Numbered from the stretch's first letter, positions 7,016 through 63,923 are shown. The stretch is 64,000 bases of DNA from Deltaproteobacteria bacterium (GCA_030690165.1 JAUYHF010000014.1:34257-98256); one strand, 5' to 3'. The notes: generated by a model not told the origin, from the sequence alone. Translations and numbers: made by a program.

Positions 7016-7858
7016 TTATCCTGCACTCTTGGCTAATGCCTGAAGTTCTTTCCTTTGTTTCAGTTTTTTAATAGCCGCGTTTTCTATCTGTCTTACCCTT
7101 TCCCTTGTTATCCCAAGCCCGTCTCCTATCTCCTGCAGAGTTAAGGAAGGCTCGGCTATAAACCTGTTTTCTATAACATATCGTTCTTTTTCTTTTAGGG
7201 CTGAAAGGGCATTTGATATTTTATCTTTTACAATACTGTCTTCCTGGCCGACAAGGGCAGTATCTTCCGGGTTATATGATGTATCAGGAAGCATATCAAG
7301 ATATGTAACATCGTCTTCTCCAATCTCGTTGTCAAGAGATAGGTCGCGACATTCCGCATCTTCTGATGGCAAATTCCCAATCCCCGGTTCTGACTCTTGA
7401 CTCCTGTATTCTGACTCCTGACTTCTTTCATTATTCCTCTCAAGTTGATAAAAAAGTTTCTTTTTAAGGTTGACTGCGCCTTTACTAACAAGACTCCAGT
7501 TCTTTAATATAAATGCCTGGATATGAGACCTTATCCACCAAACCGCATAGGTGATGAGGCGATAACCCTTGAACGGGTCAAATTTCTTTACCGCCTTCAT
7601 CAGTCCGATATTACCCTCCTGGATGAGGTCGGCCAGCCTTAACCCATAGTTCCTGTATCCCATAGCAATCTTTACAACAAATCTTAAGTTTGAGGTTATG
7701 AGCTTATGGGCAGCATCAATATCATTCTGTTCCCTGAAACGGACAGCAAGCGCAAACTCCTCATCTTTTGACAGGAGAGGAAATCTGTTTATCTGGACAA
7801 GATATGGTTGAAGATAATTGGATAATATAAGTTGTGTCATAAAAAAGTCACACGTCAC
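7016..7858 (-). CDS. rpoH: RNA polymerase sigma-70-family factor, RpoH-like
   Basis: Region 2 (DLIQEGNIGLMKAVKKFDP...YAVWWIR), an RpoH-box-like KKKLFYQLER, and a region 4 HTH (LQEIGDGLGITRERVRQIE). Contains an in-frame heptamer-repeat insert (SEYRSQESEPG). Confidence 0.7.
   Translation of the reverse strand: MTCDFFMTQLILSNYLQPYLVQINRFPLLSKDEEFALAVRFREQNDIDAAHKLITSNLRFVVKIAMGYRNYGLRLADLIQEGNIGLMKAVKKFDPFKGYRLITYAVWWIRSHIQAFILKNWSLVSKGAVNLKKKLFYQLERNNERSQESEYRSQESEPGIGNLPSEDAECRDLSLDNEIGEDDVTYLDMLPDTSYNPEDTALVGQEDSIVKDKISNALSALKEKERYVIENRFIAEPSLTLQEIGDGLGITRERVRQIENAAIKKLKQRKELQALAKSAG
7388..7425. repeat. In-frame tandem heptamer tract (TGACTCC-like units) inside rpoH
   Basis: The sequence ttctgactcttgactcctgtattctgactcctgacttc encodes the low-complexity peptide ...ESEYRSQESE... 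Confidence 0.6.
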
Positions 7859-7925
7859 AAGTGATTACGTCACCAGTCATAACCAGTCATAAGTGACAAG
7901 TTACTTGTGACTGGTGACTATGGTT
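7859..7925. repeat. Imperfect palindromic element between atpE 3' end and rpoH 5' end
   Basis: cgtcaccagtcataaccagtcataagtgacaagttacttgtgactggtgac. The arms are reverse complements (gtcaccagtca / tgactggtgac). Confidence 0.6.
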
Positions 7926-7939
7926 TGTAGACTGGATTA

Positions 7940-8305
7940 TTACCCAGCTATTACATATTTAATAAGCGGGTTTGCATACAACAGAATCAATGCAATGACC
8001 AGGACATATATGGCCAGCGATTCTATCATGGCCAAGCCTACCAGCATTGTGGTTAGTATCTGTCCGGATGCTCCGGGATTCCTTGCTATACCTTCCAACG
8101 CGCTTTTAAGGGCATTACTTTGTGCAAAAGCAGCTCCAATGGCAGCGATGGCCATTCCAAACCCGGCAACTAGGACAACCACTATAAAGAATGTAGTGTT
8201 GCCGCCACCGGATGACCTTATCCCTTCTTCAGCAGCCATTACAACCGGAGAATAGCCTGCAAGGAAAACGATTGCAATGACAACTGTTAATAGTATTTTT
8301 TTCAT
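7940..8305 (-). CDS. atpE: F0 ATP synthase subunit c with an N-terminal extension/signal-like segment
   Basis: C-terminal two-helix proteolipid with [23 protein letters not shown]...[23 protein letters not shown]. Confidence 0.8.
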
Positions 8306-8403
8306 ATTTACCTCCTTTCTATTAAATTAGTGTTGAGCTGTGAGTGTTAAGTGTTGGGTTTTTTACTTAACACTTTTCACTAATCACTTAACACTGCATT
8401 GTA
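8306..8403. repeat. Palindromic intercistronic element between atpB and atpE
   Basis: gtgttgagctgtgagtgttaagtgttggg...cttaacacttttcactaatcacttaacac. gtgttaagtg and cacttaacac are reverse complements. Confidence 0.55.
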
Positions 8404-9060
8404 CTAATGCTCTTCTTCCAGCGCCCCTCCGATATACATCGTTGCGAGCAAAGAAAATATGAATGCCTGTATAAAGCTCACCAGGATGCCTAACATCTGA
8501 ACCGGCACCGGCACAAAGAAAGGGGCCAGGAGCATCAGGATCCCGATAATCAATTCGTGTCCCATCATATTCCCAAAAAGACGCAGGGATAATGACACAG
8601 GTCTGAACAGATGGCCGAGGACCTCAATGGGTATCATTAACGGCGCAAGCCACCACACTGGACCCACAAAGCGTTTGATATACTTCAGCCCATGCTCTTT
8701 GATGCCGATTATGTGTGTTGCAAAAAAAACAACCAGTGCCAAGCCTGCCGTAGTGTTTAGATTCGCTGTGGGTGGCAGCAGACCCGGTATCAAACCTATG
8801 AGGTTCGAAATGAGGATATACAAACCCAACGTTGCAATAAACGGAAAATATTTTTTGCCGTGATGCCCCATTGTCTCTTCCACTAAATTTTTAATGCCTT
8901 CAAGCAAAAGCTCCACAATGCTCTGAGCAGTATTGTTAGGAACCAGGGTTAATCTTTTTGAGACAAAATAGCTGAACAGACCAAGGCATAAAATGATATA
9001 AAACATCATTGCTGTATGAGCTTGCAAGCCGAATAATGGAAGTATTATTTGCGGATGCAT
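8404..9060 (-). CDS. atpB: F0 ATP synthase subunit a
   Basis: 218-aa polytopic protein carrying the conserved subunit-a motif [13 protein letters not shown]. Confidence 0.8.
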
Positions 9061-9061
9061 A

Positions 9062-9520
9062 TCAGGCTGCCTCCTTTCTCTGCTTAATGCCCCTGCTTAC
9101 TACCACTGGGGCAGGCTCTGTAGGGACATGTTTTGAAAAATATATCGCAGCTAAAAGTGTAGTTATTATTATTATGCTAAAACCTATAATAAGCCCCACA
9201 GGGTCAGCGAGATTTTTTGAAACCAGTATGCCTATGATAAAAATGGTTGCAATAAACCTTATATAATACCTTGTTATAACAAACCGCTGTGCATTGTCAG
9301 GCTTGAATAAAAAACCGCTTTTTACAGTCCGCGCCAATATAGAGAGATTTGCCATGCCAATGACAGTTCCGATAATAACACTTAAAACCATAAAAGTTGA
9401 GCTAACAATCGCAGTAATAATAAAGGCAATCGCAGAGATAATTAAATTTGCCCTTCCCACCTTTACAAACAGAGGATGAAGTATATCAAAATTAATCTGC
9501 TGAATGGCGTTAGTAACCAT
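9062..9520 (-). CDS. atpI: Putative ATP synthase protein I (AtpI-like membrane protein)
   Basis: 152-aa four-helix hydrophobic protein immediately upstream of atpB in the operon. Confidence 0.4.
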
Positions 9521-9725
9521 ACTTCTTTATCAATGTATAGATATTTCTAAATCCTGCTACTATACCAATTATCAGGAATATTATTGTAAACCACGGGTCG
9601 GTAGAAAATACCCTGTCTAAATAAACACCTATATAGAGCCCTACAAAGGTGGCAACCACCATGGATATGCCAAGGGAGGACAGCCATGTCACCTTTTTAA
9701 GGAAGCCCTCATTCTTTTCTTCCAT
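9510..9725 (-). CDS. atpZ: AtpZ-family small membrane protein (putative F0F1-ATPase-associated subunit)
   Basis: 71 aa, two TM helices, with the motif ...GVYLDRVFSTDPWFTIIFLIIGIVAGFRNIY typical of the AtpZ family. First gene of the atp gene run. Confidence 0.5.
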   Translation of the reverse strand: MEEKNEGFLKKVTWLSSLGISMVVATFVGLYIGVYLDRVFSTDPWFTIIFLIIGIVAGFRNIYTLIKKYGY

Positions 9726-10056: not shown

Positions 10057-10064
10057 TTATGCCA

Positions 10065-10093
10065 AGTGGGATAAAGTGGAATAAAGTGGAATA
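10065..10093 (+). promoter_or_regulatory. Putative MraZ operator: three 10-bp-phased direct repeats (AAGTGGGAT / AAAGTGGAAT / AAAGTGGAAT)
   Basis: Direct repeats with a GTGG core at 10-bp phasing, immediately downstream of the -10. This matches the known MraZ-box architecture (phased GTGG-containing repeats). Confidence 0.5.
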
Positions 10094-13799: not shown

Positions 13800-15331
13800 A
13801 GATAAAAGAATTGATAAAAAATCTTCCAGGTAGTCATGTTATCGGCAATGCCGATATACCTGTCCGTGGCATTACCTATGATTCGAGGCAGGTGAACAGG
13901 GATTTTATTTTCGCTGCTGTCAAAGGGCAGCATCTTGACGGCCGTGCCTTTGTCAAGGATGCATTGGCGCGGGGGGCTTCTGCTGTTATCCTGGAAGAGG
14001 CTTTTGGGGACCTCAATGCAGTCCAGATAATAGTGCCTGATGCAAGGGAGGCGATGGCAAGTGTGGCCGCGGCATTTTATGGAGAGCCTTGCAGAAACAT
14101 GACCCTTATTGGCGTAACAGGGACAAATGGAAAGACAACCATAACATACCTTGTAGAGTCAATATTGAGGACTGCCGGTTTCAATGCCGGGGTTGTGGGC
14201 ACGATTAACTACCGCTATAAGGATAAAATTTTTAATGCGCCGCATACAACACCAGAGGCGCCTGACCTTCAAAGGATTTTCAGAGCAATGTTAGACAGCG
14301 GTGTGACTCATTGCGTTATGGAGGTTTCTTCTCACAGCCTTGCGCAAAAAAGGGTTTTTGGCTCAAGGATTGTTGGCGGGGTATTTACAAATCTTACTCA
14401 GGACCACCTTGATTACCACAAGACAATGGAGGAGTATTTTGAAAGCAAGTCCATGTTATTTACTGATTTTGTGGCCAGAGAAAGGGATGGTTTTGCAGTA
14501 ATAAACACAGACGACCCATGGGGAAAGAGATTGTTAAATTGCAAATTGCAAATTGCAAATTGCAAATTTATCAGATACAGCCTTAAACAGGATGCGGAGA
14601 TTTATCCTGTTAAAGTTTCGTTTTCCGAAAGAGGCATAGAGGCCATGCTTGATACACCTATTGGCTCTGTAAAGATTTCTTCGGCGCTTTTGGGCGAATA
14701 TAATCTGCAAAATATTATGGCAGCGGTCGGTGTTGGCATCGGCCTTGCGCTGGATAAAAAGACTATAGAAAAAGGTATTGCTGCTCTAAAAAGAGTTCCA
14801 GGCAGGCTTGAAAGAATTATTTCGGAAGACGGTTTCCAGGCCGTAGTTGATTATGCCCATACAGGAGATGCATTGGAGAGGGTGATTGTCGCATTAAAGC
14901 CGCTTGCGAAGAAGAGGCTTATCACTGTATTCGGCTGCGGCGGCGACAGGGACAGGGGCAAAAGGCCTGTGATGGGAGAAATTGCAGCAAGGCTGAGCGA
15001 TTTCACGGTAATCACATCAGATAATCCGAGAAGCGAAGATCCGATGGAGATTATAAAAGAGATTGAGGCGGGAATAAAAGGTTGTCCAAAGATACTGGAT
15101 TTTAAATCCGAAATTACTCATGGTTATAGAACCATACCTGACAGGCATGAGGCAATAATGGCCGCTGTAAATCTTGCGGCTGCGGGCGATATTATCCTTG
15201 TTGCCGGCAAGGGGCATGAGGATTACCAGATAATCGGCGACAGGAATATTCCCTTTGAGGATACAAAGGAGATAAAGGCTGCAATGGAGGTTAAATACAG
15301 AAGTCAGAAGTCGGTAGTCAGTAGTCAGTAG
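13796..15331 (+). CDS. murE: UDP-N-acetylmuramoyl-L-alanyl-D-glutamate--2,6-diaminopimelate ligase MurE
   Basis: P-loop GVTGTNGKTT and Mur ligase middle/C-terminal domains (DYAHTGDALE). Carries an in-frame TTGCAAA-repeat insert and a repeat-derived C-terminal tail. Confidence 0.85.
   Translation: MKIKELIKNLPGSHVIGNADIPVRGITYDSRQVNRDFIFAAVKGQHLDGRAFVKDALARGASAVILEEAFGDLNAVQIIVPDAREAMASVAAAFYGEPCRNMTLIGVTGTNGKTTITYLVESILRTAGFNAGVVGTINYRYKDKIFNAPHTTPEAPDLQRIFRAMLDSGVTHCVMEVSSHSLAQKRVFGSRIVGGVFTNLTQDHLDYHKTMEEYFESKSMLFTDFVARERDGFAVINTDDPWGKRLLNCKLQIANCKFIRYSLKQDAEIYPVKVSFSERGIEAMLDTPIGSVKISSALLGEYNLQNIMAAVGVGIGLALDKKTIEKGIAALKRVPGRLERIISEDGFQAVVDYAHTGDALERVIVALKPLAKKRLITVFGCGGDRDRGKRPVMGEIAARLSDFTVITSDNPRSEDPMEIIKEIEAGIKGCPKILDFKSEITHGYRTIPDRHEAIMAAVNLAAAGDIILVAGKGHEDYQIIGDRNIPFEDTKEIKAAMEVKYRSQKSVVSSQ
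14535..14569. repeat. Tandem TTGCAAA heptamer array inserted in-frame in murE (encodes LNCKLQIANCKF)
   Basis: aaattgcaaattgcaaattgcaaattgcaaattta, five units, a multiple of 3 nt. Confidence 0.7.
15298..15331. repeat. Heptamer tract (AGTCAG-type) forming the murE C-terminal tail and stop
   Basis: cagaagtcagaagtcggtagtcagtagtcagtag encodes ...RSQKSVVSSQ*. Confidence 0.55.
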
Positions 15332-15363
15332 TTTTTATTCTGTATTCTGGATTCTTTTTTTAT

Positions 15364-16758
15364 ATGGTTAGGCTCAAGATAAAAGAAGTTTTAAAGACTG
15401 TGCACGGTTGTCTTGCAAGCGGGGGCAGTGAGGGTTTAATCAACGGCGTTTCAACAGACTCCCGCACTGTAAATAAAGGAGAGCTTTTCTTTGCCTTAAA
15501 AGGGCCGCGGTTTGACGGCAATAAATTTGTTGGCGATGTGTTTAAGAAAGGGGCGGCAGGGGCTGTGGTATCGTCAGAAGCCAGAAGTTATGGTTTGCAA
15601 TTTGGGATAGTTGAGGTTATTGATACGCTTAAAGCCCTCGGTGATCTTGCGCTATACTGGAGAGAGAGGCATCTCGTCCCGCTTATAGCGATAAGCGGCA
15701 GTTGCGGCAAGACAACAACAAAGGATATGATAGCGTCTATACTTAAAAACTCGCGTCCTATTATAAAGACCGAAGGAAATCTCAATAATCTTATTGGTCT
15801 TCCTCTTACGATATTCAACCTTAACAACATCCACAAGGCCGCTGTGGTTGAGCTTGGAATAAGCGAAAAAGGCGAGATGAAAAGGCTCGCTCAAATTTGC
15901 AAACCAGATGTGGCTGTTCTTACAAATATCGGCGAGGCGCATACAGCTACACTTAACAACGTAGAGGGTGTTGCATCCGCAAAGGGTGAACTCTTTGAAA
16001 GCATGGATGACAATGGGACCGCTATAATAAATATTGATGACCCATGGCTTAAAAAGATAGCAGAGAATATCAACGTAAAAAAGATTACCTTCAGCTTAAA
16101 GTCAAAGGCGGATGTGATGTTAAAAGAGGCGAGTGTCAAGAGGCAAGAGGCAAAAAGTTCATCAGGAATATCCGCCTCATTCTTAGTTATGGGAGAAGAA
16201 ATTCCTGTGAAGTTAAAATATACAGGTACGCATAATCTCTATAATGCCGCAGCAGCCATTGCAGCTACATTTCCCCTTGGTGTAACAAAAGAAGAGATAA
16301 TGGAAGGACTCTATGCCGCGGAAACTATGCACGGCAGGATGGAAATAGTTACCTTGAGAAATGGAATAACAATCATTGACGATACATACAACGCCAACCC
16401 GCTCTCTATGGAAGCGGCTCTAAAGACGCTTGCAGATATGGAGGGCAGAAAGATTGCAGTCCTTGGCGATATGTTTGAGCTGGGAGAGATGTCAGACGAT
16501 GCCCATAAAAAGGTAGGGATGTTTGCGCAGGATACCGGCATAGATATGCTTTTTACTATCGGTGTTTATAGCGATGCTCTGGTAAGCGGAGCAATGGAAA
16601 AAGGTATGTTGCCGGATAAAATATACAAGGCACATGATAAGGCAGAGCTGATTAAGGCGCTTAACAATGTAGTGAAGGAAGGCGATGTTATTCTGATAAA
16701 GGGTTCAAGGGCGGCTGCAATGGAGGAGATAGTAGAAGGGCTAAAAATTGCAAATTGA
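15364..16758 (+). CDS. murF: UDP-N-acetylmuramoyl-tripeptide--D-alanyl-D-alanine ligase MurF
   Basis: P-loop ISGSCGKTTTKDM and Mur ligase domains. The C-terminus ...GLKIAN* runs into the TTGCAAA-based element. Confidence 0.85.
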   Translation: MVRLKIKEVLKTVHGCLASGGSEGLINGVSTDSRTVNKGELFFALKGPRFDGNKFVGDVFKKGAAGAVVSSEARSYGLQFGIVEVIDTLKALGDLALYWRERHLVPLIAISGSCGKTTTKDMIASILKNSRPIIKTEGNLNNLIGLPLTIFNLNNIHKAAVVELGISEKGEMKRLAQICKPDVAVLTNIGEAHTATLNNVEGVASAKGELFESMDDNGTAIINIDDPWLKKIAENINVKKITFSLKSKADVMLKEASVKRQEAKSSSGISASFLVMGEEIPVKLKYTGTHNLYNAAAAIAATFPLGVTKEEIMEGLYAAETMHGRMEIVTLRNGITIIDDTYNANPLSMEAALKTLADMEGRKIAVLGDMFELGEMSDDAHKKVGMFAQDTGIDMLFTIGVYSDALVSGAMEKGMLPDKIYKAHDKAELIKALNNVVKEGDVILIKGSRAAAMEEIVEGLKIAN

Positions 16759-16841
16759 AGATTGCAAATTGAAAAATGCAAAATGAAATAAGTTTTAAAT
16801 TTACAATTTGCACTTTTCATTTTGCAATGGAGCGAAGCGAC
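16743..16841. repeat. Copy 1 of a ~95-bp palindromic TTGCAAA-based element, docked at the mraY start codon
   Basis: aaaattgcaaattgaagattgcaaattgaaaaatgcaaaatgaaat...atttacaatttgcacttttcattttgcaatggagcgaagcgac. Long imperfect hairpin; the 3' end GCAATGGAGCGAAGCGAC lies 2 nt before the mraY ATG. Confidence 0.75.
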
Positions 16842-16843
16842 TA

Positions 16844-17917: not shown

Positions 17918-19299
17918 TAATGCAAACAACAATCAGCAAAGAGAGACCACCACTTGATTTAAGAGACAGGAATGTCCTTGTAGTGGGTCTTGCGCGGACA
18001 GGGGTTTCTACCGCCAGATTTTTGAAGGAGAAAGGCGCTATTGTTGCGGCTACGGATATTTTACCGGCATCTCAGATTAAAGACATTGATGACCTGTGCA
18101 GTAACGGCATAGAAGTAGAAACAGGGGGACACAGTATTAAACGTTTTTTAAATGCTCATCTCATTATTTTAAGCCCCGGTGTTTTCCCTGATATAGAGCC
18201 TCTTAAAGAGGCAAGAAAAAAGGGTGTGGAAATCATAAGCGAAGTGGAGCTTGCATTCAATTTTATAAAAGAGCCTATAGTGGCTATAGCTGGAACCAAT
18301 GGAAAAACAACCACAACAACACTGATTGGCAAGATACTGGAATCAGGCGGCAATAAGGTTTTTGTCGGCGGGAATATAGGGCTTCCGTTGATTGAGTATG
18401 TTGCATCAAATCAATCTGCAGATTATATTGTTGTTGAGGTGAGCAGCTTTCAGCTTGAAGGTACCAGGAAATTCAGACCCCATATAGCCGTTCTCTTAAA
18501 TATTACTGAAGACCATCTGGATAGATATGCGAGCTTTGACGAGTATGCTGCCGCAAAGTTCAGGCTCTTTGAGAATATGGAGGAAGGAGATGTTGCTATT
18601 GTAAATTTTGATGATACCACTATCAACTCAAAACTCAAAACTCAAAACTCAAAACCTAAAGTAATACCTTTTAGCAGCAGTAAAATTTTGAAGGAGGGGG
18701 TTTGTTACAATAATAACAGCATTAACTATTCTGTTGGAGGAGTAAAAGAATCCTATCCCACAGCAAATTTCAAACTTAAGGGTATCCACAATATAGAAAA
18801 CATAATGGCTTCCATTGCCGCTGCAAAGGCCTGCGGTGTTTCGAGGGATGCAATATTAAAGACCATTGAAGAATTTAAAGGGCTTCCCCATAGGATGGAG
18901 CTTATAAGGGAGATAAATGGAACGAGCTATTATAATGATTCCAAAGGCACAAATATAGGCGCGCTTCAAAAATCACTTGAAGGGCTTAATGCGCCTGTTA
19001 TCCTTATTGCCGGCGGCAAGGACAAGGGCGGCGATTACAGGGTTTTAAATGATTTGATAAAAAATAAGGTGCGGCATCTGATACTTCTGGGCGAGGCAAA
19101 AAACAAGATAAGGGATGCCTTTAAAGGATTAACAGATATTGCAACAGTTGAGTCCTTGAAAGAAGCTGTGGATATTGCCAGCAATAAGGCTGAAAAAGGA
19201 GATGTGGTGTTATTGTCACCTGCATGCTCCAGCTTTGATATGTTCAAAGATTATAAGGAACGGGGCGATGTATTCAGAAGATTGGTGGAGATGTTATGA
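17914..19299 (+). CDS. murD: UDP-N-acetylmuramoylalanine--D-glutamate ligase MurD
   Basis: P-loop GTNGKTTTT and Mur ligase domains. ATGA overlap with the mraY stop. In-frame heptamer insert ([10 protein letters not shown]). Confidence 0.85.
18624..18660. repeat. In-frame AAAACTC heptamer tract in murD
   Basis: caactcaaaactcaaaactcaaaactcaaaacctaaa. Confidence 0.6.
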
Positions 19300-20399: not shown

Positions 20400-21532
20400 A
20401 AGGCATGCCTTTCACGGATTTTAGGTTGAGAATTGTATTAACAGGAGGAGGCACCGGCGGGCATCTGTTTCCTGCCCTTGCGCTGGCAGAAGAATTTAAG
20501 GCAAGGGATAAAGATTGCGAGATCCTATTTATAGGAAGCGCTGCGGGCATAGAAAAGGATGTTGTTCCAAAATATGGTTATGCTTTAGAATTTGTGGATG
20601 TAGAAGGCCTTAAAGGAAAAGGGATATATAATAAAGTATCGGCAGGCTTAAAGGCAGCAAAGGCAGTTTTTGCCGCAAAGAAGATTCTTAAGCCATTCAG
20701 ACCGGATGGTGTCATAGGTACGGGTGGTTATTCTTCTGGTCCGGTTGTTTTGGCAGCAAGGCTTTTGGGGATAAAGACAGCTATCCTTGAACAGAATACG
20801 ATGCCAGGTTTAACCAATAGGCTTCTGGGAAGGTTTGTAGACAGGATATATGTGGCATTTGAACAAACCAAAAAAAAAATTCCAGGCGGGAGGGTAATCC
20901 TGGCAGGAAATCCGGTGAGAAAGGAGATTCTGGAAATTGCAAATTGCAAACATGTCCCTGCAAGTATTAAGCAGGGATTGCAAATTGCAAATTGCAAATT
21001 CACAATTCTCATCTTCGGCGGAAGCCAGGGGGCAAAGGCAATAAATACGGCATTTTTAGATGCGCTGGAATATCTCGCTGATATAAGAGACAGCATCAGG
21101 ATTATTCATCAGACAGGGGATGCGGATTACATAACAGTAAAAGAGACTTACGAAAGAAAAGGGATTAAGGCCGATGTCTATAGGTTTATAGATGATATGG
21201 CTCATGCATACTCTCAGGCAGACATGGTGATATGCAGGGCAGGGGCTACATCCATTGCCGAGATAACCGCTCTGGGGATTGCCTCTATACTCATACCATA
21301 TCCATTTGCAGCTAATAACCATCAGGAAATAAATGCAAGATGTTTAGCTGATAAAGGGGCTGCAATCATGATGAGGCAAGGCGAGATTATAGGAGATGCG
21401 ATGGCGGTTCTTATTGAGAGATTTTATAAAAACCCTGATGAATTAAAAAAGATAAGAGAAAATGCAAAAGCTCTGGGAAGGCCGAATGCGGCAAAGGAGA
21501 TAGTGGACAACATTCTACAAATGTTGAATTGA
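20396..21532 (+). CDS. murG: UDP-N-acetylglucosamine--N-acetylmuramyl-(pentapeptide) pyrophosphoryl-undecaprenol GlcNAc transferase MurG
   Basis: N-terminal GGGTGGHLFPALA glycine loop and a GT-B C-terminal domain. Contains a 66-bp in-frame composite repeat insertion. Confidence 0.85.
   Translation: MKGMPFTDFRLRIVLTGGGTGGHLFPALALAEEFKARDKDCEILFIGSAAGIEKDVVPKYGYALEFVDVEGLKGKGIYNKVSAGLKAAKAVFAAKKILKPFRPDGVIGTGGYSSGPVVLAARLLGIKTAILEQNTMPGLTNRLLGRFVDRIYVAFEQTKKKIPGGRVILAGNPVRKEILEIANCKHVPASIKQGLQIANCKFTILIFGGSQGAKAINTAFLDALEYLADIRDSIRIIHQTGDADYITVKETYERKGIKADVYRFIDDMAHAYSQADMVICRAGATSIAEITALGIASILIPYPFAANNHQEINARCLADKGAAIMMRQGEIIGDAMAVLIERFYKNPDELKKIRENAKALGRPNAAKEIVDNILQMLN
20935..21000. repeat. 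Composite in-frame insertion in murG: TTGCAAA units flanking a 25-nt hairpin (gtccctgcaagtattaagcagggat)
   Basis: 66 bp, equal to 22 codons (IANCKHVPASIKQGLQIANCKF). The same 25-mer hairpin recurs in non-coding DNA at 28493-28519. Confidence 0.7.
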
Positions 21533-21620
21533 AGATTGAAGATTGAAAATTTTAAAATGACTGTTTTTCAATTTACAATTTCAAATTTGCAATTTTCAAT
21601 CTGCATTGGAGCGAAGCGAT
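21524..21620. repeat. Copy 2 of the ~95-bp TTGCAAA-based palindromic element, docked at the murC start codon
   Basis: ttgaattgaagattgaagattgaaaatt...caatttacaatttcaaatttgcaattttcaatctgcattggagcgaagcgat followed directly by the murC ATG. Confidence 0.7.
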
Positions 21621-23042
21621 ATGTATAAGGGTCGTATAAAACATATCCATTTTATAGGTATCGGCGGCAGCGGTATGAGCGGCATCGCAGAGGTGCTTTT
21701 AAACCTCGGGTATAATATTACAGGCTCTGACATGAAAGCATCGGATATTACGCGGAGATTGGAAGGCCTTGGAGCTAAAATATTTATCGGCCACAGGCCT
21801 GAATTTATAAATGGCTCAGATGTGGTTGTCTATTCGTCCGCTGTTAAAAAAGATAATCCTGAGATTGTATCGGCAAGGGGAAAACTGATACCTGTTATCC
21901 CGAGGGCAGAGATGCTGGCAGAGCTTATGAGGATGAAATACGGCATAGCAATAGCAGGCACTCACGGAAAGACAACAACTACTTCCATGATTGCGACAAT
22001 CCTCGGCTCACACGGTATGGATCCAACCGTTGTTATAGGCGGCAAGCTCAACAGTATTGGAAGCAATGCCAGACTTGGGAAAGGTGAATTCCTTGTAGCA
22101 GAGGCGGATGAGAGCGACGGCAGTTTTTTAAAGCTTTCACCGACAATTGCAGTGGTTACAAATATTGACAGAGAGCATATGGACCATTACAGGGATATGG
22201 ATGAGGTAAGAGGCGCCTACCTTGCCTTTATAAATAAGATTCCATTTTATGGGTGCGCGGTTCTCTGCATGGATCACCCTAATATCCAGGGGCTTATCCC
22301 AAAGGTTACGAGAAGACATACAACATATGGTTTAACTGCCCAGGCGGATTTCAGCGCCAGAGACATGGAGATAAAAGGAGTTAAAACCTCATTTGATGTC
22401 TGGCAGAGGGGCAGAAAATTGGGAAGGGTTAGTGTGAAGATTCCAGGAGAACACAATGTTTATAATTCATTGGCTGCCCTAACAGTGGCAATGGAGCTTG
22501 ACATGAGTTTTGAAGAGGCAAGAGATTCCCTTTCAAATTTCAGTGGTGTGGAGAGGAGATTTCAGATTAAAGGCGAATATAACGGCATTACATTCGTTGA
22601 TGACTACGGCCATCATCCTGTTGAAATAAAGGCAACACTTAAGGCTGCAAAGGCCGGCTGGGACAACAGGGTGGTGGCAGTCTTTCAGCCTCATCGTTAT
22701 TCAAGGACAAAAGACCTTTTCCAGGAATTTTTATCCGCATTCAATGATGCGGACACCCTGGTGCTCACTGACATATATCCGGCAGGCGAGGGAAAAATAG
22801 AGGGGATTTCTTCAGAGGCGCTTTATAACAGCATAAAGGCATACGGCCATAGAGATGTAGTTTATATACCGGATAAAAAAGATATACCGGATTATTTAAA
22901 TAAAATTACAAAGCCGGGGGATATAGTTATAACGTTAGGGGCAGGCAATATATGGCAGGTATCTGAGGAGATGGTAAAGACAGTAGGCAGTAAGCAGTCA
23001 GCAGTAAGCAGCGCAAACTCAAAAGCAGGAGGTGGAATGTAA
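21621..23042 (+). CDS. murC: UDP-N-acetylmuramate--L-alanine ligase MurC
   Basis: [11 protein letters not shown] and [11 protein letters not shown] motifs. Start taken at MYKG; the alternative MERSD-M start lies inside the repeat element. Repeat-derived C-terminal tail. Confidence 0.85.
22981..23012. repeat. GCAGTAA-type heptamer tract forming the murC C-terminal tail
   Basis: cagtaggcagtaagcagtcagcagtaagcagc encodes ...[13 protein letters not shown]. Confidence 0.5.
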
Positions 23043-23971: not shown

Positions 23972-24942
23972 TAAAATTGCAAATTGCAAATTTCAAATCA
24001 AAGAAAATAGGTGTTTTGATGGGTGGGATGTCTACTGAAAGGGGTATTTCGCTTAGGAGTGGTCAGGCTGTTTATGATGCCCTGATTCAAAAAGGTTACA
24101 ACGTTATAAAAATAGATGTTGGAAAGGATGTTTATGAACAGCTCACCAAAGAAAAGATAGATATGGCATTTATAGCCCTTCATGGAAAATACGGCGAGGA
24201 CGGGGCTATTCAGGGCTTATTAGAGATAATCGGGGTTCCATATACCGGGTCAGGTATCATGTCAAGCGCAGTATGCGCAAATAAGGTAGTGGCAAAAAAA
24301 TTTTTTATGCTTAACAAAATACCAACCCCTGCATTTATGAGTTTAGGAGTTAAGGGGTTAAAAAACATGGGTGTTGAATCTTTCATATCCATGTTTAAAG
24401 CCCCTGGCTCCCACCTTATTGTAAAGCCTAATTCGCAGGGCTCTACCATTGGTGTAACCGTGGTAAAGAATAAAAGCGATTTGGCAAAGGCAGTAAAAAA
24501 GGCTTTGCGCTACGATGATACTGTGTTGATAGAGAGATTTGTAAAGGGCAGGGAACTGACTGTCGGCATATTAAACGGCAGAACATTGCCGGTTATAGAG
24601 ATAAGACCGAAGGGCGGGATATACGATTTCAAGGCAAAGTACACAAAGGGTATGACAGAATATATTGCCCCTGCCCCGCTTCCAAAGACGCTTGAGAAAA
24701 AGGTGAATAGTATCGCCTTGAAGGCATTCGATAGCCTTGGATGCCGCGGCGCTGCAAGGGTTGATATAATGCTTGATTATAAAAACAGGCCGTATGTGCT
24801 GGAGGTGAATACCATACCCGGTATGACCGAAATGAGCCTCCTTCCAAAGGCCGCTCTTTGCGCAGGCATAAGTTTTCCGGAGATGGTGGAAGAGATTTTG
24901 ATGGGGGGTATAAAACATTTTCGGGGCAAAGGAATGGCATGA
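23968..24942 (+). CDS. ddl: D-alanine--D-alanine ligase
   Basis: ...IGVLMGGMSTERGISLRSG and ATP-grasp motifs (EVNTIPGMT). The N-terminus overlaps a TTGCAAA repeat (IKLQIANFK), so the true start may lie slightly downstream. Confidence 0.8.
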   Translation: MIKLQIANFKSKKIGVLMGGMSTERGISLRSGQAVYDALIQKGYNVIKIDVGKDVYEQLTKEKIDMAFIALHGKYGEDGAIQGLLEIIGVPYTGSGIMSSAVCANKVVAKKFFMLNKIPTPAFMSLGVKGLKNMGVESFISMFKAPGSHLIVKPNSQGSTIGVTVVKNKSDLAKAVKKALRYDDTVLIERFVKGRELTVGILNGRTLPVIEIRPKGGIYDFKAKYTKGMTEYIAPAPLPKTLEKKVNSIALKAFDSLGCRGAARVDIMLDYKNRPYVLEVNTIPGMTEMSLLPKAALCAGISFPEMVEEILMGGIKHFRGKGMA

Positions 24943-27124: not shown

Positions 27125-27205
27125 TTACGAATTGCGATTTCGGATTGCGGATTCTAAATCCCAAATCCGAATTCTGCAATCCGCAATCTAAAAAAGGAGG
27201 TATAT
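27125..27205. repeat. Palindromic intercistronic element between ftsA and ftsZ (GGATTGC/AATCCGC units)
   Basis: gaattgcgatttcggattgcggattctaaatcccaaatccgaattctgcaatccgcaatc. Followed by the RBS AAGGAGG and the ftsZ ATG. Confidence 0.6.
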
Positions 27206-35074: not shown

Positions 35075-36579
<1,505 letters not shown>

Positions 36580-37440: not shown

Positions 37441-37498
37441 AATAAATACAGGTTATAGGTTATAGGCTATAGGTTTTCCCATTGCCTATAGCCTGTTT
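37441..37498. repeat. Palindromic intercistronic element (GTTATAG units) between atpA and atpG
   Basis: acaggttataggttataggctataggttttcccattgcctatagcctg. Confidence 0.55.
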
Positions 37499-39004: not shown

Positions 39005-39005
39005 A

Positions 39006-39554
39006 TCAAATCACCCCTTGTATTATTTTTTCTTTAACCCTTTCCAACTGGGTTTTTATGCTTCCGTCCAGTATGGTGTTTCCAATCCGAAAAACAAGTC
39101 CGCCGATAAGCGCGGGGGTTTTTTCAACCGTAAGAATAATCTCTTTGTTGGTCAATTGATGAAGCTTTTTAGTAATTTCATCAATACGATTTTTATCCAG
39201 ATCTGCGGCTGATTCCACGGTTACCTTTATTCTGCCTGACAATTCATCTTCCAATATGGAATATGCGGCGTTTATATCTTCAATTATTCCTATGCCTCTA
39301 TTCTTTGTTAAAATGGCTAAAAATCTTTTAACAGTATCGGAGATTTCTAATACATCCCCCACCTTTCTTATAAGGCCGTGTCTATCTTCCAATTTATACA
39401 TTGGATTGAGGGCAAATCTCTTGAATTCAGGGTTAGCGGTAAATACAGTTGAAATATCCCTCAACTCTCTGCCTATTTCCTTATATCTCTTTTCCTCTTG
39501 CCCCAGTTCAATCAGGGCCTTTGCATATCTTTTAGCAACAGCGCTTTTTTTCAT
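39006..39554 (-). CDS. atpH: F1 ATP synthase delta subunit (OSCP)
   Basis: 182 aa, N-terminus [20 protein letters not shown]. Position between atpF and atpA. Confidence 0.8.
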
Positions 39555-39593
39555 AATTATGCCATAATCGCACGAATAAATTCGTGCCGTTTG

Positions 39594-40190: not shown

Positions 40191-40191
40191 T

Positions 40192-40620
40192 CTATGCCAC
40201 CTTTCGGTTAAGAATCTTTTCTGCAATATCCTTTGAGATTGTTTTGCTTTCCTCTTTGAGGCGGGAGAGCGCAGACTTTGCCTCCTCTTTGAGTTTTGTT
40301 TTTGCCTCCAGAAATCCGGACTGAGAGTTTTTCCTTGCATTCTCAAGGATCTCCTGCTCTTTATCAAGCCCTTCCTGTTTGAGACGGAGCCGTTCCTCCT
40401 GAGCCTTTACCCTCGGCTCATTGAGCCGGTTCTCGTAGTCCAGAAGCCTTTTCCGAAGCCCTGCTTCTAAATCTAATGCCTCTTTCTTTTTCCCTTCTCC
40501 CTTCTTATACCGTTCTTCAAGGGTCTTAAGAACAGGCTTGTATAAAAGGGTATTCAGAATGAAATAAAGGGCGATAAACCCCGCAATCTGATATAAAAAT
40601 GTAATATCTATGTCTATCAT
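40192..40620 (-). CDS. atpF2: F0 ATP synthase subunit b' (second b-type subunit)
   Basis: 142 aa: N-terminal TM helix (FLYQIAGFIALYFILNTLLY) then a charged coiled-coil. Immediately upstream of atpF. Confidence 0.65.
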   Translation of the reverse strand: MIDIDITFLYQIAGFIALYFILNTLLYKPVLKTLEERYKKGEGKKKEALDLEAGLRKRLLDYENRLNEPRVKAQEERLRLKQEGLDKEQEILENARKNSQSGFLEAKTKLKEEAKSALSRLKEESKTISKDIAEKILNRKVA

Positions 40621-42655: not shown

Positions 42656-42754
42656 AAAATTGTAAATTGAAGATTGCAAATTGCAAAGTTAAAAGAACTG
42701 CGCAATTTACAATTTGCATTTTTCAATCTTCATTTTGCAATGGAGCAAGGCGAC
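42656..42754. repeat. Copy 3 of the ~95-bp TTGCAAA-based palindromic element, docked at the fumarate hydratase beta start codon
   Basis: aaaaaattgtaaattgaagattgcaaattgcaaagttaaaagaactgcgcaatttacaatttgcatttttcaatcttcattttgcaatggagcaaggcgac followed directly by the ATG. Confidence 0.75.
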
Positions 42755-45338: not shown

Positions 45339-45401
45339 GTTTATTTTAAGGATGAGCTTATGAACAAGCAAATCAAAAAGATACCTAAAGGAGGTAGTTA
45401 C

Positions 45402-46508
45402 ATGAGAAGGTTAATGGTTTTAGTTTTAATGTTTGTTGCAGGTGGGTTGCTTGCAGGAAATTCACTTGGTGTAACTAATGCCAAAACAATTAACGATGCC
45501 CATCAGGATACCATTGATTCTATTACTTTTAGTCCGGATGGTAAAATCCTGGCGTCAGGAAGTTACGATGAAGGCGAAACGAGAGGTCTTATCAATTTTT
45601 GGGATACAACAACGTGGAAGAAGATAAAGACTATTAATGGTTATAACAAAGTTTGTTTTAGTCCCAATGGAAAGACGCTGGCAGCATTATCCTCTGGCTT
45701 TGAGGATGCCTCAATTGCTCTCTTAGATGTTGCTACGGGTGATAAGATAAAGACCTTCTCTCCTAATATAAAAACCATCTCTTATAACCCTATTTCTGAA
45801 AGTTGCTCTATTGCTTTAAGTACAGATGGAAAATTGTTGGCAGCAGGTTGTACTCCCAGATGGAGTGAAGTTGGACATATATTGCTCTGGGATGTCAAAA
45901 CAGGAGATATGATAAAAGAACTCCAAGGACATGAGTTTGGTATTAATTCTATTGCTTTCAGTCCGGATGGAAAATTATTAGCATCAGGGGGATGGGGGTA
46001 TCATACTATAATCCTTTGGGATGTCAAAACAGGGGATAGAATAAAGGAACTCCATCGTAATCAGGATAACCATAGTCCGATTTACTCCGTTGCCTTCAGT
46101 CTGGATGGAAAATTGTTGGCAGCAGGAAGTGACGATTACAGTATTATTCTTTGGGATGTAGCAGCGGGAAAAAATATTAAAACTCTGAAAGGTCATTCTG
46201 GCAGTGTCAAATCAGTTGTCTTCAGCCCTGATGGAAAGATGTTAGCATCAGTGAGCAGCGATAAAACCATCGTATTATGGGATGTGGTAAAGAAGAACAA
46301 GATTAAGACAATAGGGGCTGGAAGGCCGGTTCATTCTATTATTTTTAGTCCTGATGGGAAATTGCTGGTATCAGGGGAAGGCGAATCATGGAGGGTTAGC
46401 GAAGAGAGTTTTACTACGCTTTCCATACGGGATTGGAGGTCAACCCCAAACTTTGAGGGGGTAAAGAGTAAGCAGAAGGGGGATGGAAAAGGAAGGAAAA
46501 AGAAATAA
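45402..46508 (+). CDS. Secreted WD40-repeat (beta-propeller) protein with lysine-rich C-terminal tail
   Basis: Signal peptide MRRLMVLVLMFVAGGLLAG. About 7 WD-like repeats (ILASGSYD..., LLASGGWGYHTIILWDV, LLAAGSDDYSIILWDV, MLASVSSDKTIVLWDV). Tail KGDGKGRKKK. AGGAGG RBS. Confidence 0.75.
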   Translation: MRRLMVLVLMFVAGGLLAGNSLGVTNAKTINDAHQDTIDSITFSPDGKILASGSYDEGETRGLINFWDTTTWKKIKTINGYNKVCFSPNGKTLAALSSGFEDASIALLDVATGDKIKTFSPNIKTISYNPISESCSIALSTDGKLLAAGCTPRWSEVGHILLWDVKTGDMIKELQGHEFGINSIAFSPDGKLLASGGWGYHTIILWDVKTGDRIKELHRNQDNHSPIYSVAFSLDGKLLAAGSDDYSIILWDVAAGKNIKTLKGHSGSVKSVVFSPDGKMLASVSSDKTIVLWDVVKKNKIKTIGAGRPVHSIIFSPDGKLLVSGEGESWRVSEESFTTLSIRDWRSTPNFEGVKSKQKGDGKGRKKK

Positions 46509-50972: not shown

Positions 50973-51992
50973 ATGGCAAACAAATTTCTCAAAAAAGAAA
51001 ACATCGGCAAATTGATCGAGGCCTTGAACAAGGAAGGCAGTGCCTTTGTTGCACCTAAACTGGATGCACGACAGGTGGTGTATGCCCCTGTTATAAATGC
51101 GGAAGAGATAGTTTTTGACTATATTGTTCCGGTAAATTCTTTTAAAAAGTTTCTGTTTCCGCAGACAGAGCCGATTGCCGAGTTCAATATAAACAAGGAA
51201 GGCGTAGTTTTAAAGGGTATTGAAATAGAGCCAAAGGAAATAATAATCTTTGGTTCGCGGCCTTGCGATGCAATATGCTGTTCATCTTTAAGGTCGGTGT
51301 TCAATTGGGATTTTAAGGATGAGTTTTACAACAGGCGAGAAGACAAGGCAATTGTCATAACCGTAGCCTGCACAAAGGCCGATGACAGTTGCTTTTGCAC
51401 AACCGTCAATCTTACGCCTGATAGCCCAAACGGAAGCGATATATTATTAAAAGAAACGGTATCTGGAGATTATACAGCAGAGACAATCACAGAAAAGGGC
51501 AAGGCATTTATAAAAAGGTTTGAAAATATCTTCAGCCCTCAGCCTTCAGCCGTAAGCCACAAGCCAATTGCCGATGTAAAACCCATAGCAGGCATTGATG
51601 TAAAAAAAATTAAGGAATATCTCAAAGACACAAAACATTATGAAAATCCAATTTGGGCTGAACTATCAAGAAAATGTATAGGCTGCGGCGCATGCACCTT
51701 TGCCTGTCCCACATGCCACTGCTTTGACATTGTGGATGAGGGGAGCGCATTTGAGGGAAAAAGGATAAAGAACTGGGATGCGTGCCAGTTTGAATTTTTC
51801 ACTCTTCACACAAGCGGACACAATCCGAGAGACACGCAGTATAAAAGATGGCGCAACCGGTTTATGTGCAAGTTCAATTTTTATCCGAACAAATTTTCAT
51901 CCCGCGGTTGCGTTGGGTGTGGAAGGTGTATTCGTGTATGTCCAGTAAGGCTGGATATAACAGAGGTTATGGAGGAGGTAACAAAATTGTAA
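50973..51992 (+). CDS. flxB: Fe-S cluster protein of an Flx-type module (AsrA-like 4Fe-4S)
   Basis: CIGCGACTFACPTCHC and CVGCGRCIRVCP motifs. Confidence 0.55.
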   Translation: MANKFLKKENIGKLIEALNKEGSAFVAPKLDARQVVYAPVINAEEIVFDYIVPVNSFKKFLFPQTEPIAEFNINKEGVVLKGIEIEPKEIIIFGSRPCDAICCSSLRSVFNWDFKDEFYNRREDKAIVITVACTKADDSCFCTTVNLTPDSPNGSDILLKETVSGDYTAETITEKGKAFIKRFENIFSPQPSAVSHKPIADVKPIAGIDVKKIKEYLKDTKHYENPIWAELSRKCIGCGACTFACPTCHCFDIVDEGSAFEGKRIKNWDACQFEFFTLHTSGHNPRDTQYKRWRNRFMCKFNFYPNKFSSRGCVGCGRCIRVCPVRLDITEVMEEVTKL

Positions 51993-52088
51993 ATTGAAGA
52001 TTGCAAATTGGAAAATGCAAAGTTAAAAGAAACTTCAAATTTACAATTTGCACTTTTCAGTCTTCATTTTGCAATGGAGCGAAGCGAC
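51984..52088. repeat. Copy 4 of the ~95-bp TTGCAAA-based palindromic element, docked at the flxA start codon
   Basis: aaaattgtaaattgaagattgcaaattggaaaatgcaaagttaaaagaaacttcaaatttacaatttgcacttttcagtcttcattttgcaatggagcgaagcgac followed directly by the ATG. Confidence 0.75.
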
Positions 52089-60141: not shown

Positions 60142-60154
60142 GCCGATAGCTCTT

Positions 60155-62535: not shown

Positions 62536-63923
62536 AAAGTATGAAGGCTTTCATAGTAGCGGGAACTCATAGCGGAGTTGGCAAAACCACCATTGCCATT
62601 GGCCTTATGGCATTGCTTAAAAAAAGAGGCATGGCTGTTCAGCCTTTCAAGGTTGGGCCGGATTATATTGACCCATCTTACCATAGACTGGTTTGCGGAA
62701 GACCGTCCTACAACCTTGATACATGGATGGTAGGGGTTGATGGCGTTAAAAGGACTTTTGCAAAGGAAATGCAGGGCGCTGATATTGGGATTATTGAAGG
62801 TGTGATGGGACTTTTTGACGGAAAGGACGGCAGGGATGAACAGGGAAGCACAGCCCATGTTGCAAAGATTCTAAAGCTTCCTGTAATCCTAATTGTTGAC
62901 GCAAGAAGCATGGCAAGGAGCGCGGCTGCATTGGTTTACGGTTATGAAAGATTTGACCCCGCTGTGAAGATAGCCGGTATTATATTCAACAGGGTCGGCA
63001 GTGTCAGGCACTATAAGATGCTTAAAGAAGCAGTGGAGGCAAAATGTAAGGCAAAGGTGCTGGGCTATATCCCGCGTAATGAAGAGATAACACTCCCTGA
63101 AAGACATTTGGGGCTTGTGATGATGGAATGGACAATGAACAAGGGGCAAGGGGCAAAGTTTAAAAAACTTACATCAATGATAGAGAGGTTCGTTGATATT
63201 GATGAGATATTAAGATTAAGCTCAAGGTTCAGAGTTCAAGCTTCAAAGTCTTTCCACCGCATCACGCACCACGCATCACGCATTACGAGAATCGCCATTG
63301 CCAGGGACAATGCCTTTTGTTTCTATTATCAGGAAAATCTGGATATGCTGAAAGAGTTGGGCGCAGAGCTTGTTTTTTTCAGCCCTTTAAAGGATAAGAA
63401 ACTGCCTGCTGGCATAAACGGCATATATCTCGGCGGAGGGTATCCTGAGCTTTATGCAAGAAGGCTTGAGGCGAATAAGGCGCTCAGCAAAGAGATAAAG
63501 CTTATTGCAGATAGCGGCCTTCCAATCTATGCTGAATGCGGCGGGCTTATGTATCTTGGAAAAGGTTTGAAGGATTTTAAAGGGAAAAAATATGAAATGG
63601 TAGGAATATTCCCGTGGGTTTCAAGGATGCTGGAAAAAAGGAAGTCGCTGGGCTACAGAGAGGTAAGGGTTATTGATGGCTGCCCGTTTTTGAAAAAAGG
63701 TCAAAAAATTCTCGGACACGAATACCATTATTCGGAGATAGACACATTCTCTGATAAAATAAAAAGAGTTTATCAGTTCACAGTTCACGGTTCACAGGTC
63801 ACAGTTAAAGAAGGTTATTTATACAAGAATACGCTTGCCAGCTACATCCACCTTCATTTTGCAAGCAATCCCAAATTTGCAGAGGGGTTTGTAAGGGCGT
63901 GTTCCCTATGTCCTCCTTATTAA
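62532..63923 (+). CDS. cbiA: Cobyrinate a,c-diamide synthase (CobB/CbiA family). Contains two in-frame heptamer-repeat inserts.
   Basis: P-loop AGTHSGVGKTT, the motif PFKVGPDYIDP, and a C-terminal glutamine amidotransferase region (...YAECGGLMYLG...). Confidence 0.8.
   Translation: MKSMKAFIVAGTHSGVGKTTIAIGLMALLKKRGMAVQPFKVGPDYIDPSYHRLVCGRPSYNLDTWMVGVDGVKRTFAKEMQGADIGIIEGVMGLFDGKDGRDEQGSTAHVAKILKLPVILIVDARSMARSAAALVYGYERFDPAVKIAGIIFNRVGSVRHYKMLKEAVEAKCKAKVLGYIPRNEEITLPERHLGLVMMEWTMNKGQGAKFKKLTSMIERFVDIDEILRLSSRFRVQASKSFHRITHHASRITRIAIARDNAFCFYYQENLDMLKELGAELVFFSPLKDKKLPAGINGIYLGGGYPELYARRLEANKALSKEIKLIADSGLPIYAECGGLMYLGKGLKDFKGKKYEMVGIFPWVSRMLEKRKSLGYREVRVIDGCPFLKKGQKILGHEYHYSEIDTFSDKIKRVYQFTVHGSQVTVKEGYLYKNTLASYIHLHFASNPKFAEGFVRACSLCPPY
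63256..63289. repeat. In-frame ATCACGC/ACCACGC heptamer tract in cbiA
   Basis: ccaccgcatcacgcaccacgcatcacgcattacg encodes HRITHHASRITR. Confidence 0.55.
63783..63816. repeat. In-frame GTTCACA heptamer tract in cbiA
   Basis: cagttcacagttcacggttcacaggtcacagtta encodes QFTVHGSQVTV. Confidence 0.55.

Follow-up and report, generated by a model that had tools for sequence, protein, structure and literature searches.

According to the summaries of Mrazek (2007) given in PMC4679880 and PMC4692102, heptanucleotide repeats are the most abundant class of long simple sequence repeats (SSRs) in many prokaryotes, polymerase slippage is their proposed cause, and units whose length is a multiple of three are those expected in coding regions. 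In cyanobacteria, the STRR of Calothrix PCC 7601 and the Nostoc heptamers include GGGGA(C/T)T and TTTTGAA repeats (PMC4692102, bioRxiv 10.1101/2022.06.06.494920). The neuO gene of the Escherichia coli K1 prophage CUS-3 contains a coding variable-number tandem repeat of AAGACTC, is translated in full only at repeat numbers divisible by 3, holds arrays of 3-53 units and is OFF in 65.6% of genomes (PMC13001214). In Geobacter metallireducens a multicopy element made of four GGACCGG units lies both inside genes and between them (PMC2700814), and in marine Beggiatoaceae TAACTGA direct repeats are clustered shortly before start codons, with a suggested role in translation (PMC4679880). Here we describe tandem heptanucleotide arrays, in genes and in spacers, in a stretch of 64,000 nucleotides from Deltaproteobacteria bacterium (GCA_030690165.1, JAUYHF010000014.1:34257-98256), referred to below as the window, together with a hairpin element built from one of their units.

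Repeats of this kind are thus already known, as heptanucleotide SSRs, STRR, neuO and the Geobacter elements. Within the literature searched, several features are new: the lineage of the host, the closeness with which the arrays are packed, their spread through loops and termini of many essential enzymes with length polymorphism confined to steps of 21 nt, the persistence of sites while their units turn over, and an array-armed hairpin module with a Shine-Dalgarno (SD) sequence. We consider it likely that the tracts are heptanucleotide SSRs, made and remodelled at an unusually high rate in this lineage and filtered for reading frame within genes. Like the prokaryotic heptanucleotide SSRs as summarised above, they show over-represented 7-nt units, a patchy phylogenetic spread, a non-pathogen host and slippage as the proposed origin; the window has tandem 7-nt copies in excess over chance and over other periods, and these vary by whole units. 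However, arrays are several times denser here than in neighbouring lineages, and more than half of the arrays lie in the coding sequence of essential genes. The arrays resemble the cyanobacterial STRR and Nostoc repeats in the many heptamer units per genome, in their position near start and stop codons and in a function that is unknown or regulatory, but the host is not a cyanobacterium, as an earlier note on this DNA had already held, and the named units form no arrays in the window. This applies to TAACTGA, GGGAATC, GGGGAYT, GGACCGG, AAGACTC and TTTTGAT; TTTTGAA arrays were found only in two relatives (L004 and L019) and not in the window. The STRR1-3 units, which we take to be CCCCAGT, TTGGTCA and CAACAGT, form no arrays in the window or in the clade loci. 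The Geobacter element is paralleled by the AAATTGC family described below, which occurs twice in murG, but it has one GC-rich unit in a fixed four copies, and no frame-step polymorphism or hairpin/SD module has been reported for it. The TAACTGA repeats likewise consist of a single unit, unlike those of the focal clade; that unit has stop codons in its forward orientation and is therefore excluded from coding sequence.

The window comes from an uncultured groundwater metagenome-assembled genome (MAG) of the Thermodesulfobacteriota ("Deltaproteobacteria"), a relative of sulfate reducers. The comparison draws on 64 kb from the focal genome, about 234 kb from its relatives and, from metagenomes, contigs totalling about 0.24 Mb. 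Based on a MurD scan with one genome per species, the closest relative is L001 (91% identity), followed by groundwater and sediment MAGs (L002-L008 and L019) at 68-77% and by L009 and L010 at 58-60%; beyond these lie Syntrophaceae- and Syntrophorhabdus-like genomes near 50%. Nucleotide identity to the window is 94.6% for L001, 93-97% for L123 and 96% for L082. MurE, MurF, MurD and CbiA of the focal genome are each the sole member of their 90% identity cluster. Gene identities were assigned with NCBIfam (rpoH, murE, murF, murD, murG, murC, ddl, atpF, a HydB/AsrA-like Fe-S subunit and cbiA/cobB).

The excess of period 7 that the earlier note had suspected is borne out against shuffled sequence, against other periods and in the clade loci. 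Tandem Repeats Finder (TRF) returned 60 rows for the window, about 40 of them with period 7 or 14, which collapse into about 30 arrays of 2.1-5.4 copies. In a lag-match scan, lag 7 gave 10 tracts scoring at least 12, whereas 20 dinucleotide shuffles averaged 0.05 and never exceeded 1, which puts the window at about 200 times chance; among the other periods from 4 to 13 no tract reached that score except one of period 10, and the signals at periods 14 and 21 arise because both are multiples of 7. Exact arrays with at least three copies number four at period 7 and none at periods 4-6 and 8-15. Once the gene map had been corrected, 17 arrays fell in coding sequence, which totals 58.7 kb (0.29 per kb), and 13 in the 5.3 kb of spacer (2.48 per kb), so that spacers, which make up 8% of the window, are about 8 times denser in arrays.

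This enrichment is shared by relatives down to about 58% MurD identity. Almost all close-clade loci carry 2-5 period-7 arrays per 10 kb, the sole zero being L005 (4.3 kb), while rates per 10 kb elsewhere are 0.78 in Syntrophia-like genomes, 0.72 in the Syntrophorhabdus group and 0.27 in Omnitrophota and other loci. Period 7 is also the most frequent class in the control loci (73/149 arrays), in agreement with the generalisation on prokaryotic long SSRs summarised above. The 79 arrays in 234 kb of the clade comprise 48 distinct units, and there is thus no single sequence motif. In the window the commonest unit is AAATTGC; AAAACTC and AAATTTC also recur across different genes and genomes. Outside the focal clade, three loci (L050 of Nitrospiraceae SURF_35, L046 and L071) carry period-7 arrays at 3.2-3.7 per 10 kb, and the trait is therefore patchy across phyla.

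The earlier note had named seven coding tracts, in rpoH, the murE and murC tails, murD, atpF and, twice, cbiA. TRF finds all seven within a few bases, and every coding tract, of whichever list, lies inside an intact open reading frame (ORF), as the note had held. Its list was incomplete: it lacked the AAATTGC arrays of murE (14536-14568), murG (two) and ddl, further arrays in murF (16124-16153), atpF (40112-40147), the hydB-like gene (51530-51558) and cbiA (63140-63156 and 63218-63249), and 13 intergenic arrays. Two details also need correction, since the murE-tail unit had been given with six letters and the AtpF N-terminus, read as ending in QISNF, is actually MKFQISNFKFQILLN. The coding arrays are as follows.

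7390-7426, minus strand: rpoH internal array, TRF unit CTGACTC, 4.9 copies, sense unit GAGTCAG; encodes RSQESEYRSQESE, after the RpoH-box region
14536-14568, plus strand: murE internal array in a loop of variable length, AAATTGC, 4.7 copies; encodes LNCKLQIANCKF
15100-15116, plus strand: murE site with 1.5 units of AAATCCG
15298-15332, plus strand: murE C-terminal tail array, CAGAAGT/CAGTAGT, 5.0 copies, running into the stop codon
16124-16153, plus strand: murF internal array, AAGAGGC, in a loop whose length varies across orthologues
18625-18655, plus strand: murD internal array, AACTCAA, 4.4 copies, 100% matches
20934-20950 and 20977-21000, plus strand: two AAATTGC arrays in the MurG interdomain linker (TRF)
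22981-23011, plus strand: murC C-terminal tail array, CAGTAAG
23974-23998, plus strand: ddl N-terminal array, AAATTGC; encodes MIKLQIANFK
40154-40187, minus strand: atpF N-terminal array, AAATTTC (TRF unit AAATTTG), 4.9 copies, 100% matches; encodes MKFQISNFKFQI
40112-40147, minus strand: second atpF N-terminal array; encodes LLNCLRSAVYCLLF, signal-peptide-like
51530-51558, plus strand: internal array in the HydB/AsrA-like Fe-S subunit gene, CTTCAGC
63140-63156 (CAAGGGG), 63218-63249 (AAGTTCA) and 63258-63287 (CGCATCA), plus strand: cbiA arrays in two variable loops (TRF)
63774-63806, plus strand: cbiA array in the FTVHGSQVT loop, CAGTTCA

These arrays occupy variable-length segments, interdomain linkers, C-terminal tails (in the set MurE, MurF, MurC and MurG) and N-termini (Ddl and AtpF), and the heptad-periodic peptides that they encode include KLQIANC, KLKTQNS, RSQESEY and KFQISNF. 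The annotated TTG start of ddl at 23968 was confirmed. A sequence search of the PDB with CbiA gave no match at E <=1e-20, and its tract loops were placed by homologue alignments instead.

The clearest evidence comes from differences in array length between near-identical genomes. The RpoH 90% cluster contains proteins of 274 and of 267 aa; the heptapeptide RSQESEY accounts exactly for the difference, and the sequences are otherwise 95-98% identical. In the DNA of L082, three units (21 nt) are missing at window position 7417. The AtpF cluster contains alleles of 198 and 191 aa, one beginning as in the window and the other with MKFQILLN; L084 lacks 21 nt at 40174. In murE, L001 has three more AAATCCG-type units (21 nt) at 15104; the murC tail of the window is 21 nt longer than that of L123, at 22993; and the AAATTGC array of ddl is 21 nt longer in L123, at 23980. 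The change is therefore 21 nt in 5/5 coding arrays (genomes 93-99% identical). The only intergenic array with a clean length difference is TGGGAAG at 6993-7014, where the window and L082 are a single unit (7 nt) apart. Steps of 21 nt in genes and of 7 nt between them are the prediction of slippage with reading-frame selection, the mechanism that the earlier note had put forward. Its further expectation, that tract lengths would be multiples of 21 nt, fails for the lengths themselves, which span 17-37 nt, and holds for the differences between alleles. These alleles were recovered from independent NCBI, JGI, ENA and Logan assemblies and are thus not the artefacts of one assembly. L003 and L006 (87.6% identity) were left out of indel scoring at arrays, their divergence being too great. 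Length differences in the Ddl 90% cluster were also considered as array alleles and rejected, as they are due to start-codon calls and C-terminal changes.

The reading frame also restricts which units a gene can hold. Three successive 7-nt units pass through all three reading phases, so that no phase of a coding array may contain a stop codon. Stop-free sense units are found in 15/15 internal or N-terminal coding arrays and in 6/13 intergenic ones, against an expectation of 0.60 for random heptamers of matching base composition; among the coding arrays, only the murE and murC tails at the C-terminus depart from this rule.

Comparison with more distant relatives shows that the sites persist while their units change; the tracts are thus not invariant or conserved in distant relatives, the outcome which, according to the earlier note, would have marked them as ordinary coding sequence. 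In an orthologue alignment of MurD, every clade member down to about 68% identity has a heptad-periodic segment following "VNFDD" (for example KSQISNLKSQIS), and its DNA units, in register, are only 1-2 substitutions apart (AACTCAA, AAGTCAC, AATTCAA, AACTCTC and AAATCTC). Compared with a solved MurD (PDB 3lk7), the tract makes this segment only about two residues longer. Such a near-normal length means that the tract replaces a normal segment without insertion, contrary to the description of the tracts as low-complexity inserts. The MurE loop is built from AAATTGC in the window and L006 and from AAAACTC in L001, L123 and L003, so that three positions of every unit differ between the window and its closest relatives, and the murE tail is unlike in every relative compared. 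In a broad set of CbiA homologues, other heptad-periodic peptides or arrays stand at the same loop sites; at the 63774-63806 loop these are other arrays or a PPxPPFxKGGxGGF insert. A kept site with a changed unit is also seen in the second AtpF array and in the MurG linker. Because the MurE, MurD and CbiA loops keep arrays but switch units, the tracts are best described as variable, frame-filtered SSRs and not as conserved coding sequence. The coding arrays are probably fast-evolving, near-neutral linker sequence constrained in frame.

Two further observations concern the same proteins. The N-terminal extension of AtpF, MKFQISNFKFQILLNCLRSAVYCLLFIASPVLA followed by AEE (40112-40190, minus strand), has the look of a signal peptide and stems almost wholly from the two heptamer arrays; relatives at 89% identity have another array-derived hydrophobic stretch, SGVWCLVSGVLSLL. 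Additionally, a second type of in-frame insert occurs in loops of housekeeping proteins of the clade, with sequences such as NPPSPPFNKGGQGGFEG, TNPPSIPPLKKGDTGGF and PAPAGSKQG, and is presumably a translated GC-rich palindromic repeat of the CCCCC...GGGGG type. It was seen in a HydB-like variant (P0026), in MurD of L002 and L005 and in many CbiA homologues (including P0044, P0049-P0051, P0053, P0056, P0058, P0059, P0064, P0066 and P0067), and it shares loops with the heptamer arrays of other genomes.

How such arrays come about can be sketched as follows. Slipped-strand mispairing in replication or repair, a process demonstrated in neuO and suggested for heptanucleotide SSRs at large, would most likely create the changes in array length, and arrays would arise wherever selection tolerates them. 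In spacers they would change by single units and often form inverted pairs that fold into hairpins; in genes, survival would require a stop-free unit, a site in a surface loop, linker or terminal tail, and changes of three units (21 nt, 7 residues). Once occupied, a site would persist while its unit is repeatedly replaced or homogenised, a form of concerted evolution. Several points weigh against this account. Slippage is inferred from differences between alleles, and the sample consists of partial genomes. Slippage by three units cannot easily homogenise neighbouring units, nor can slippage alone explain 2-3 changed positions per unit at about 5% divergence, as in the swaps of AAATTGC for AAAACTC in MurE and of AACTCAA for AAGTCAC in MurD. 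The first origin of an array in an essential gene, without passing through a frameshift, is not explained by slippage either. Finally, the MurE units do not track phylogeny, as the window shares its unit with L006 and its closest relative, L001, shares another with L003. An extra process is therefore needed, possibly misaligned repair or gene conversion inside an array, conversion from one array to another, or the insertion of preformed arrays; because AAATTGC, AAAACTC and AAATTTC recur at unrelated loci, the latter two are plausible contributors. In the hairpins, template switching within the molecule at quasi-palindromes might be what preserves the complementarity of the arms.

AAATTGC is also the unit of a dispersed element. 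REP/BIME/REPIN and Correia-type elements are intergenic palindromic elements, and the window contains four copies of a structure that resembles them. It is about 100 nt long and consists, in order, of an AAATTGN array, a short loop, an inverted array, the tail TTTTGCAATGGAGCGAAGCGAC and the ATG of the next gene.

16744-16843, plus strand: element 1, between murF and mraY; tail TTTTGCAATGGAGCGAAGCGAC, mraY ATG at 16844
21527-21620, plus strand: element 2, between murG and murC; tail TGGAGCGAAGCGAT, murC ATG at 21621
42657-42754, plus strand: element 3, between the fumarase alpha and beta subunit genes; ATG at 42755
51984-52088, plus strand: element 4, between the HydB-like and FAD-NAD-binding subunit genes; ATG at 52089

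The intergenic AAATTGC arrays occur as inverted pairs, and the arms of the resulting hairpins are 30-36 nt long and 77-86% complementary, with folding energies of -17 to -25 kcal/mol. The ATGs 3' of the tails are the annotated start codons, and each tail carries GGAG, a Shine-Dalgarno sequence, 9-12 nt before the ATG (12 nt at mraY); the tail provides the next gene with its SD and spacer. The tail motif TGGAGCGAAGCGAC was also considered as a general consensus for translation initiation and rejected, since the four hairpin elements are its sole positions in the window. With a probe matching 20 nt of the tail exactly, JGI metagenomes yielded 38 stretches with 31 distinct flanks, nearly all with the architecture of the element, with variable numbers of AAAATGC/AAATTGC units and before different genes. 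Two of the contigs, L093 and L113, carry a tandem duplication of the 21-nt tail TTTGCAATGGAGCGAAGCGAC. Presence varies at orthologous sites: the murF/mraY element is absent in L001 and L123 (93-95% identical to the window), L008 keeps the tail at the murG/murC site with arms of different units, and in L004, L008, L009, L012 and L016 the hairpin of the murG/murC spacer is a different one, whose arms are often heptamer-periodic. The 100 N at the start of mraY in L001 (about 8830-8927), which have duplicated flanks, mark a scaffold gap and no biological feature. A scan of the whole window with Rfam 15 at the gathering threshold returned tRNA-Leu only, and no family matches the hairpins.

The element is, like REP, REPIN and MITE-like sequences, multicopy and dispersed, an imperfect palindrome and variably present at orthologous sites, and it shares with REP/BIME/REPIN and Correia elements its shortness and its place between operon cistrons. 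It differs from these in arms that are variable-number heptamer arrays, in a conserved 3' tail with a downstream SD and in that no transposase was identified. We therefore regard the AAATTGC hairpin with its SD tail as a candidate new family of intercistronic elements, and we infer a putative influence on translation initiation of the downstream cistron or on mRNA stability. Between GGAG and the ATG, the tails also contain GCGAAGC (16822-16843, 21601-21620, 42735-42754 and 52069-52088). As DNA, d(GCGAAGC) forms a very stable mini-hairpin.

The existence of such an element lends some weight to the view that arrays arrive ready-made by way of a mobile or recombining element (REP/REPIN/MITE-like, or through ectopic gene conversion) and are not built up where they stand. 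In the window, AAATTGC and variants of it are found at about 10 positions and belong to a dispersed element family, so that the tracts are not each built from a different unit, as had been claimed; a two-unit AAATTGC probe has 38 matches in the window against 2.6 expected. The same unit builds the hairpin, with its conserved tail, 31 contexts and variable presence at about 95% identity. Whole arrays exchange their unit between close genomes, the distribution of units departs from the phylogeny, and AAAACTC and AAATTTC are shared by different genes and genomes. However, the 79 arrays comprise 48 distinct units, the in-register MurD units are as close to one another as local divergence would leave them, and clean indels of 7 and 21 nt match slippage. 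Neither target-site duplications nor terminal inverted repeats nor a transposase came to light, and no mobilising gene was noticed among the annotated ORFs, though the window was not screened systematically. We hold ready-made arrival, as a general explanation, to be unlikely.

Selection for nucleic-acid signals, such as sites for a 7-nt-reading (Csp-like) protein or regulatory mRNA structures, would be in keeping with the crowding of spacers: an array or an array-armed hairpin lies in nearly every short spacer of the atp and dcw operons, and in 5/7 clade loci the murG/murC spacer has one, with a different sequence in each. The sites remain occupied throughout the clade, the hairpin element carries an SD and start context, and regulatory roles have been proposed for TAACTGA and the Nostoc heptamer repeats (PMC4679880; bioRxiv 10.1101/2022.06.06.494920). 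Yet the 48 units are difficult to square with a single sequence-specific binding protein, close relatives do without the element at orthologous sites, no Rfam family matches, folding z-scores of the spacers are modest at several loci, and coding arrays act like intergenic ones apart from the frame filter. This explanation strikes us as quite doubtful for the arrays as a whole.

A more speculative proposal, to which we give little credence, is that a templated or enzyme-driven process specific to the lineage rewrites 7-nt arrays at preferred sites, and that the hairpin with its SD tail is a portable module for translation initiation or mRNA stability. If it were true, the process would replace whole arrays at 5% divergence and keep the arms of intercistronic hairpins complementary.

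The earlier note had further regarded the tracts as candidate contingency loci. Under this reading they would be phase-variable as in neuO, with single-unit slippage toggling or truncating genes and thereby producing population heterogeneity. The 7-nt unit is not a multiple of 3, so that a one-unit change shifts the frame, as in neuO (PMC13001214), and this applies to all 17 coding arrays; some lie at 5' ends (atpF and ddl) or just upstream of start codons, and arrays do differ in length between near-identical genomes, which is the part of the claim that stands. The likeness extends to the peptides, both being heptad-periodic: by our own translation AAGACTC gives KTQDSRL, and the AAAACTC of the window gives KLKTQNS, a very similar peptide. 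What does not stand is on/off switching. There was no out-of-frame allele in 9 RpoH and 9 AtpF sequences (16/18 full length) or in 5 Ddl cluster sequences, nor among the orthologues in 11 clade loci, a small sample in which reads were not examined, and the coding length changes keep the frame throughout. The neuO gene is a dispensable surface-modification gene whose long arrays are often out of frame, whereas the arrays here are short (at most 5.4 units, against 3-53) and in frame, and they sit in essential, single-copy housekeeping genes such as the mur ligases, sigma-32 and ATP synthase b (rpoH, murC/D/E/F/G, ddl, atpF and cbiA are the genes concerned). The lack of OFF alleles, the essential genes and the short arrays together do not support the label of contingency locus, which we judge highly improbable. 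Since the sites stay occupied while their units are replaced or homogenised, the coding arrays are better seen as fast-evolving and frame-constrained than as on/off switches.

The intact ORFs and the near-normal length of the MurD tract might suggest that we are dealing with ordinary coding sequence that is conserved, or with artefacts of assembly. This reading has a negligible chance of being right, given the period-7 excess over shuffles, the unit and length differences between near-identical genomes and the identical alleles in independent assemblies.

This lineage offers an unusually dense natural data set on why the repeat unit should be 7 nt long, on what such repeats do and on how protein linkers are built from translated microsatellites. 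Because steps of 7 nt are free in spacers and steps of 21 nt are frame-filtered in genes, mutation and selection can be separated at dozens of orthologous sites. More broadly, loops, linkers and tails of core enzymes, and even a signal-peptide-like N-terminus, can be translated microsatellites with fast turnover. Such tracts lower protein identity, shift start-codon calls and can mislead homology-based annotation of MAGs.

Other intergenic arrays of the window, including a hairpin, are the following.

6993-7014: TGGGAAG array just 3' of the rpoH stop codon
8360-8395: array between atpB and atpE (TRF)
15336-15355, plus strand: TATTCTG array between murE and murF
27131-27174: hairpin in the ftsA/ftsZ spacer with heptamer-array arms, ATTGCGG / AATCCGA; L123 has other sequence there
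35039-35057: array 3' of atpD (TRF)
36552-36575: array in the atpG/atpD spacer (TRF)
37450-37475: array in the atpA/atpG spacer (TRF)

The ATP synthase genes lie in two loci, one at 7940-9725 (atpI-like, atpB and atpE, beside rpoH) and one at 35075-40620 (two atpF genes, atpH, atpA, atpG and atpD), and nearly every spacer of both holds a heptamer array. Between atpE and rpoH (7835-7965, minus strand), two hairpins follow each other in a region of about -40 kcal/mol. The arms of the longer one are 7- to 10-nt periodic, and L081-L083 (96% identical) have an unrelated hairpin of like stability in its place.

The only strong tract of another period is a period-10 repeat upstream of mraZ (10064-10093), with three copies of AAGTGGAATA and 95% matches. 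Elsewhere in the window, a gene at 45360-46508 encodes a 382-residue WD40 beta-propeller protein within a redox cluster of the Hdr/Flx type, where it adjoins the genes for a CCG-domain protein and a large FAD/4Fe-4S protein.

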